Of a DNA stretch of 64,000 nt, positions 10,418-10,715 are shown one piece after another. The stretch lies in NCBI RefSeq assembly GCF_016026235.1, contig NZ_CP065613.1; one strand, 5' to 3'. This stretch comes from Escherichia coli. Lineage in GTDB: Bacteria > Pseudomonadota > Gammaproteobacteria > Enterobacterales > Enterobacteriaceae. How positions within the stretch are numbered: the first letter of the stretch is position 1; every line of letters starts with the position of its first letter. The notes below the pieces were generated by a model. The model was not told the origin of the DNA, made no database searches, and was given only the letters and a program-made list of their open reading frames with translations. The position numbers were made by a program, and so were the translations under genes.

Positions 10418-10494
10418 TGGTTGCGGGGGCCGGATTTGAACCGACGACCTTCGGGTTATGAGCCCGACGAGCTACCAGGCTGCTCCACCCCGCG
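10418..10494 (-). tRNA. metZ/W/V: Initiator tRNA-fMet, copy 1
   Basis: Reverse complement is CGCGGGGTGGAGCAGCCTGGTAGCTCGTCGGGCTCATAACCCGAAGGTCGTCGGTTCAAATCCGGCCCCCGCAACCA (77 nt, CAU anticodon, CCA end encoded). Confidence 0.9.
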
Positions 10495-10518
10495 TCACCG
10501 TACTGCTTTTACTTCATC

Positions 10519-10595
10519 AAATTTTGATTGGTTGCGGGGGCCGGATTTGAACCGACGACCTTCGGGTTATGAGCCCGACGAGCTACCAGACTGCT
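10519..10595 (-). tRNA. metZ/W/V: Initiator tRNA-fMet, copy 2 (D-loop variant)
   Basis: Identical to copies 1 and 3 except one base (plus-strand ccagActgc vs ccagGctgc), i.e. C to U in the D-loop of the RNA. Confidence 0.85.
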
Positions 10596-10638
10596 CCACC
10601 CCGCGTCACCGTACTGCTTTACTTCATCAAATTTTAAT

Positions 10639-10715
10639 TGGTTGCGGGGGCCGGATTTGAACCGACGACCTTCGGGTTATGAGCCCGACGAGCTACCAGG
10701 CTGCTCCACCCCGCG
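10639..10715 (-). tRNA. metZ/W/V: Initiator tRNA-fMet, copy 3
   Basis: Third tandem copy of the same 77-nt sequence. Confidence 0.9.

Follow-up and report, generated by a model that had tools for sequence, protein, structure and literature searches.

Does the middle gene of a tandem initiator-tRNA triplet in this Escherichia coli genome carry a genuine base substitution and, if so, is the altered tRNA a distinct species, a failing copy or an ordinary variant? The question concerns a stretch of 64,000 nucleotides, called the window below. It contains exactly three tRNA genes by ARAGORN, all tRNA-Met with anticodon CAT and all on the minus strand. Rfam RF00005 matches each of them (61.4–63.0 bits, gathering score 29), and all three combine a CAU anticodon with the tRNA cloverleaf, as a bacterial initiator tRNA should. 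The three tandem tRNA-fMet genes share a promoter and a terminator and lie between mltA (10924–12021, plus strand) and amiC (9091–10344, plus strand), with tRNA transcription running toward amiC; a synteny comparison found the same mltA/amiC-flanked order in K-12 MG1655 and seven other E. coli genomes. The locus is the well-known E. coli metZ-metW-metV initiator-tRNA operon, with one promoter and one terminator. Its parts, in the direction of transcription, are as follows.

10729–10771, minus strand: operon promoter region, identical to K-12, with putative hexamers
10771–10757, minus strand: A-tract of the promoter region, read directly from the sequence
10756–10751, minus strand: putative -35-like element TTGCAT, followed by a 16-nt spacer
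10734–10729, minus strand: putative -10 element TATAGT, followed by a G+C-rich stretch ahead of the tRNA
10639–10715, minus strand: initiator tRNA gene nearest the promoter (metZ position), of canonical tRNA-fMet1 sequence with C16 and G46, equal to K-12 metZ
10606–10638, minus strand: spacer between the first and middle genes, 33 nt
10529–10605, minus strand: middle initiator tRNA gene (metW position), C16 changed to U, the remaining 76 bases canonical
10590, minus strand: variant base, 'a' on the plus strand, U16 of the RNA
10495–10528, minus strand: spacer between the middle and third genes, 34 nt
10418–10494, minus strand: last of the three initiator tRNA genes (metV position), canonical throughout
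10382–10411, minus strand: intrinsic terminator 3' of the third gene, hairpin (10392–10411) plus T-run

The agreement with K-12 metZWV extends to the position between mltA and amiC, the orientation, the three 77-nt genes, the promoter, the near-identical spacers and the terminator site, and 230 of the 231 tRNA-coding bases are identical. What sets the window apart from K-12 is the C16U change of the middle gene, a single altered base in the stem of the terminator and minor differences in the spacers. A simple consensus scan called no promoter at 10300–10950, because TTGCAT fits the -35 consensus at just 3 of 6 positions; the promoter assignment is based on identity to K-12, where the metZWV promoter and its -10 box have been documented experimentally (PMC3017606), and on that literature. 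The two spacers are distinguished by a few bases, so that the tRNA copies can be told apart in reads. As a separate observation on the terminator, plus-strand position 10399 is T in the window, and C in FDAARGOS_943, PS10-3 and K-12; this lineage-derived change removes the innermost C:G pair of the terminator stem, and the Illumina draft of an enteroinvasive strain described below has the same base.

Alignment of the three 77-nt genes gave 76 invariant columns and a single difference, C to T at position 16 of the middle copy. A sequence-only reading of the locus had described copies 1 and 3 as identical and copy 2 as differing by one C-to-U change around RNA position 16/17; the alignment agrees, and with the standard numbering of the D-loop (A14 G15 C16 C17 U17a G18 G19 D20 A21) the change resolves to position 16. 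Its statement that the three K-12 genes are identical also holds, since metZ, metW and metV of MG1655 share one sequence, that of the window's outer copies, with C16 throughout. The place it had proposed for inspection of reads, about 10530, misses the variant by 60 bases and falls at the CCA with which the middle gene ends on its 3' side; the equivalent plus-strand bases of the outer copies are g at 10700 and 10479. The same reading had suggested a strain-specific isoacceptor. Strain-specific is apt, and the proper term for the second word is isodecoder, since the anticodon and the amino acid are unchanged and the tRNA body alone differs. The substitution turns the D-loop sequence CCUGG into UCUGG and abolishes the Dcm site (CCWGG) of the middle copy. 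Position 16 belongs to the D-loop's variable pocket (positions 16, 17 and 17a) and directly precedes, on the 5' side, the conserved G18-G19. The papers on tRNA-fMet structure that were consulted for a structural role of positions 16 and 17 make no mention of them.

We asked what the change would do to the fold and to the elements that mark an initiator tRNA. In the predicted minimum-energy structure position 16 is unpaired within a 9-nt D-loop, C1 is unpaired as well, and the U16 and C16 alleles share the same minimum-energy cloverleaf (-30.3 kcal/mol). The cloverleaf is predicted to be more dominant in the ensemble for U16 (0.48) than for C16 (0.25). Similarly, the Rfam score is slightly higher for the U16 copy (63.0 bits) than for the C16 copies (61.4 bits), because U is the consensus of the general tRNA model at that column. 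All three copies have the mismatch of C1 with A72 (A at index 73 of 77), the unchanged pairs G2:C71 and C3:G70, and the D-stem pair A11:U24 (A at index 11, T at index 25), which we take to be a feature of initiator tRNAs. They also share the anticodon-stem pairs G29–G31:C39–C41 (UCGGG CUCAUAA CCCGA); the role of these three consecutive G:C pairs in initiator tRNA has been described (PMC5389676). G46 is present in every copy, which places them all with tRNA-fMet1 rather than tRNA-fMet2. Judged from the primary sequence, all initiator identity elements are intact in the U16 copy.

The strain background could be narrowed by comparison with deposited assemblies. The 70-kb contig JTCO01000003.1 (assembly GCA_000805835.1) is 100% identical to window positions 1–15640, i.e. 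over 15.6 kb, and its triplet shows the pattern of the window, with T at position 16 in the middle gene and C in the genes on either side. It was reached through an exact match to the window's RecB protein. It belongs to a draft genome of enteroinvasive E. coli (EIEC) O143:H26 strain 4608-58, obtained by Illumina MiSeq 2x250 sequencing and CLC assembly (PMC4319576). This contig would finish at about window position 56577, the start of the window's IS-rich region, so it is not the source of the 64-kb window, which comes from a different, more contiguous assembly. The window's strain must be the same as, or nearly identical to, 4608-58; if it is 4608-58 itself, the Illumina draft counts as an independent data set or assembly, not as an independent isolate. 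A Logan contig of run SRR3578993 shares that RecB allele, breaks off at a repeat within the third tRNA gene and so has no bearing on the middle copy; a literature search on this run returned nothing.

Among complete E. coli genomes in RefSeq the nearest is FDAARGOS_943, which departs from the window at 31 single bases in 55.1 kb and is about 99.94% identical to it. At this locus it has only two initiator tRNA genes, both C16, and one 110-bp gene-plus-spacer unit is missing, corresponding to window 10529–10638; its two-copy array is either a real deletion by unequal crossover or a repeat collapsed in assembly. Relative to FDAARGOS_943 and the outgroup PS10-3, the U16 state is derived in the window lineage.

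Several other differences between the two genomes were recorded along the way. At window 38537 a CCC run has lost 1 bp (GCGCCCGG to GCGCCGG) relative to FDAARGOS_943 and PS10-3; the site lies inside gudX, about 155 nt ahead of the stop codon, and the deletion is either a frameshift, as in Shigella-like gene decay, or a homopolymer error. Window 55100–64000 is rearranged with respect to FDAARGOS_943, with inverted and displaced blocks, and contains an exact 769-bp repeat matching an IS1 copy; the corresponding area of FDAARGOS_943 contains copies of IS1, ISSso6, IS66 and ISEc60 and a CRISPR array near queE. Enteroinvasive E. coli and Shigella-like genomes typically look like this. The single-base differences located in CCWGG motifs are at 1213, 10590, 23682, 32295, 33762, 51812, 52112 and 54868. 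Four of these eight are the classic inner-C to T change, and such differences are present in both lineages; this fits deamination of 5-methylcytosine dominating very recent divergence.

Next, the occurrence of the allele across the species was examined. A perfect-match search for the exact 77-nt U16 sequence found it in 5 of ~5,425 complete E. coli genomes. Across E. coli genomes, matches to this tRNA range from 1 to 8 per genome (median 4). ETEC H10407 and SEC470 have U16 in metY, between argG and rimP, at the same coordinates in records of equal length. ABW_A32 (wastewater, Switzerland) and XJ6.2 (bovine, China), which are K-12-like and mutually identical across 3,077 bp, have it in the third copy, metV. 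In 24A16CRGN010 it is in the middle copy (metW), on a background just 96% identical to the window at this locus. Together with the window lineage, U16 has at least four independent occurrences at three different gene positions. The sequence-only reading had named the same substitution in reference genomes as the sign of an ordinary polymorphism, and by that measure the change is an ordinary polymorphism. The U16 allele is real, recurrent and rare. A search of metagenome contigs for the E. coli spacer joined to U16 returned 0 matches, compared with 38 matches in 28 stretches for the C16 control, which only confirms the rarity of the allele. A change that is mildly deleterious would be expected to be rare in this way too.

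Two side observations came from the same searches. In 24A16CRGN010 the DNA directly 3' of the third initiator tRNA gene (1688–3077 of its locus) is not amiC; its products are a phosphoglycerate dehydrogenase and an isomerase of the KpsF/GutQ type, and this arrangement suggests that a genomic island has entered at the metV 3' end. Among the metagenome sequences, four initiator tRNA copies have a compensatory double change in the T-stem (G53A plus C63U, numbered along the 77-nt gene), two of them also with C17U; these copies are probably from a related enterobacterial species.

Neighboring positions of the D-loop were queried as well. A search for single-base variants in the same ~5,425 genomes found C17U in 125, located in the first array copy in three of four sampled genomes and in metY in the fourth, and C17A in 83, including Nissle 1917, CFT073, ATCC 25922 and relatives. 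G18A was found in one genome alone (14EC017). G18 is a universally conserved base, which G18A would destroy. With C17U in 125 and C17A in 83 genomes against a single G18A, positions 16 and 17 are visibly permissive in E. coli. The C17A allele of metW in Nissle 1917, common to other strains, has been pointed out before (2026 preprint, 10.64898/2026.04.16.719103). C17A and C17U resemble the window's change in being one-base substitutions in the same D-loop pocket of one array copy; they differ from it in affecting the adjacent position 17 and in being 17- to 25-fold commoner. E. coli polymorphisms in which one member of the triplet has one D-loop base replaced are thus known and fairly frequent, and the window has a rarer neighbor of these.

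Dcm-directed deamination was rejected as the origin of C16U. The methylated cytosine of CCWGG is the inner one, which in C16-C17-U17a-G18-G19 is C17, whereas the base changed in the window is the unmethylated outer cytosine, C16. C17U, the classic deamination product of Dcm-methylated C17 and the one expected of a hotspot, is 25 times commoner than C16U.

Outside E. coli the same base is widespread. A scan across bacteria with the first 46 nt containing U16, one genome per species, matched at least 120 stretches of widely differing origin, among them Pseudomonas, Stutzerimonas, Bacillus, Faecalibacterium, Geobacter, Bdellovibrio and many Actinomycetes. Among the matches listed, Pseudomonas sp. 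ok272 and P. trivialis have seemingly native initiator genes that equal the window's middle gene over all 77 nt; in the DNA retrieved for these loci in other bacteria, a C16 version is absent throughout. U16 looks like the norm in those bacteria, unlike in the window, where it is the minority copy beside C16.

Our preferred reading is that the middle gene very probably represents a genuine, functional, neutral or nearly neutral lineage polymorphism of a well-known operon. In the EIEC O143:H26 lineage of the 4608-58 type, the middle gene has changed from C to T at RNA position 16, a genuine transition. That gene would most likely be co-transcribed with its neighbors and yield a working initiator tRNA with one loop base changed, supplying roughly one third of the operon output. 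The abundance of initiator tRNA in E. coli tracks gene copy number (PMC3017606), so that a functional U16 copy would keep the dosage intact. The new uridine may be reduced to dihydrouridine by DusC, giving an extra D16: DusC of E. coli makes D16 (PMC5814906), and normal tRNA-fMet carries D20 only (PMC8887418). The analysis shows the sequence, its synteny, the intact identity elements, the unchanged predicted fold, the same base in a separate Illumina assembly and the recurrence of the allele; expression, aminoacylation, formylation, D16 modification and neutrality of the U16 copy are inferred.

Might the U16 tRNA instead be a functionally distinct and selected initiator species? It would then exist alongside the C16 form as the metY-encoded tRNA-fMet2 (A46) does in K-12, and U16, possibly as D16, would alter D-loop/T-loop dynamics and thereby the efficiency or fidelity of initiation, or recognition by enzymes that target tRNA. 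Like tRNA-fMet2 (A46 in place of m7G46), the U16 form is a one-base initiator variant that accompanies tRNA-fMet1 in some strains only (PMC3017606). The two differ in place (position 46 of the variable loop, position 16 of the D-loop) and in locus, metY lying upstream of nusA/infB; A46 is also much more frequent than U16 (the K-12-type metY allele occurs in 365 of the ~5,425 genomes), and its RNA has been characterized biochemically. According to a preprint, nutrient limitation may be a condition in which the A46 isoform matters; the same question is raised there for the C17A metW allele of Nissle 1917 (10.64898/2026.04.16.719103). U16 has at least four separate origins, spread over different copies and lineages, and creates a potential DusC substrate, both of which would be compatible with selection. 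However, recurrence is also to be expected of a transition at one of few unconstrained sites in a data set of ~21,000 gene copies. The allele is very low in frequency and scattered in distribution, with no sweep in any large lineage; adjacent positions vary freely, and neither the promoter nor the other copies show an accompanying change. To our knowledge, position 16 is not a determinant of any step of initiation. We consider a selected, distinct species improbable. A more specific form of the idea holds that DusC-made D16 changes the flexibility of the elbow, that the minority species alters initiation efficiency or fidelity (in the cold or under nutrient limitation) or sensitivity to toxins, and that the recurrence reflects selection; initiator-tRNA-cleaving toxins of the relevant kind, VapC/MvpT, occur on invasion plasmids. 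We regard this scenario as very improbable.

The opposite possibility is a slightly defective copy heading for loss, its processing, folding or modification impaired, tolerated beside three other initiator genes and eventually removed by deletion or gene conversion. The rarity of U16 could be taken as a hint in that direction, as could the loss of one 110-bp array unit in the sister genome FDAARGOS_943 and the weakening change that this lineage also has in its operon terminator. However, two genomes of Pseudomonas encode the identical 77 nt, and among bacteria many initiator tRNA genes have U16. Neither the predicted fold nor its energy changes, the cloverleaf is more dominant in the ensemble, the tRNA model scores U16 higher, and ETEC H10407 has U16 in its single metY gene. 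A defective copy is, in our estimate, very unlikely.

The sequence-only reading had also raised a sequencing error, in which the true base would be C, miscalled through a methylation-related error at a Dcm site within a tandem repeat. There is some ground for such caution. The variant sits in a CCWGG motif, nanopore consensus errors cluster in CCAGG/CCTGG in Enterobacteriaceae (PMC6591954), and short-read polishing is poor within tandem repeats. Moreover, of the 31 single bases at which the window and FDAARGOS_943 disagree, 8 are located in CCWGG, a motif that covers 1.7% of bases, and the window has the 1-bp deletion in the CCC run of gudX. Against this, the Illumina-only assembly of EIEC 4608-58 shows the identical base in the same copy, and Illumina sequencing is without a Dcm-linked error mode. 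The other two copies have the identical sequence around the site, 15 nt upstream and 61 nt downstream, yet are unaffected, which makes a context-dependent error unlikely. When the differences were polarized with the outgroup PS10-3, those in CCWGG were spread evenly across lineages (3 of 17 window-derived, 2 of 10 FDAARGOS_943-derived), as expected of natural mutation; one of the FDAARGOS_943-derived cases is itself another outer-C to T change. Given the Illumina MiSeq base and the even split between lineages, we reject a nanopore Dcm-motif error. Furthermore, ETEC H10407 has U16, as do two K-12-like genomes that come from different countries and are identical over 3 kb. With an Illumina MiSeq draft and other complete E. 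coli genomes carrying the allele, the suggestion of an error is not supported, and an artefact of sequencing or assembly is very unlikely.

Import from another species by recombination is dismissed, as the difference is a single base and the flanking DNA is that of a typical E. coli, matching the lineage exactly.

The operon is thus a textbook one, and the U16 allele is already public, among others in the EIEC 4608-58 Illumina draft and in ETEC H10407. For users of the genome, the reading of a genuine lineage polymorphism means that the U16 base at 10590 should not be 'corrected' as an error; the allele is usable as a lineage marker for the EIEC O143:H26 clone. For the species as a whole, the counts of D-loop variants (C17U 125, C17A 83, C16U 5, G18A 1) amount to a natural-variation map of the positions at which the initiator-tRNA D-loop is tolerant of change.
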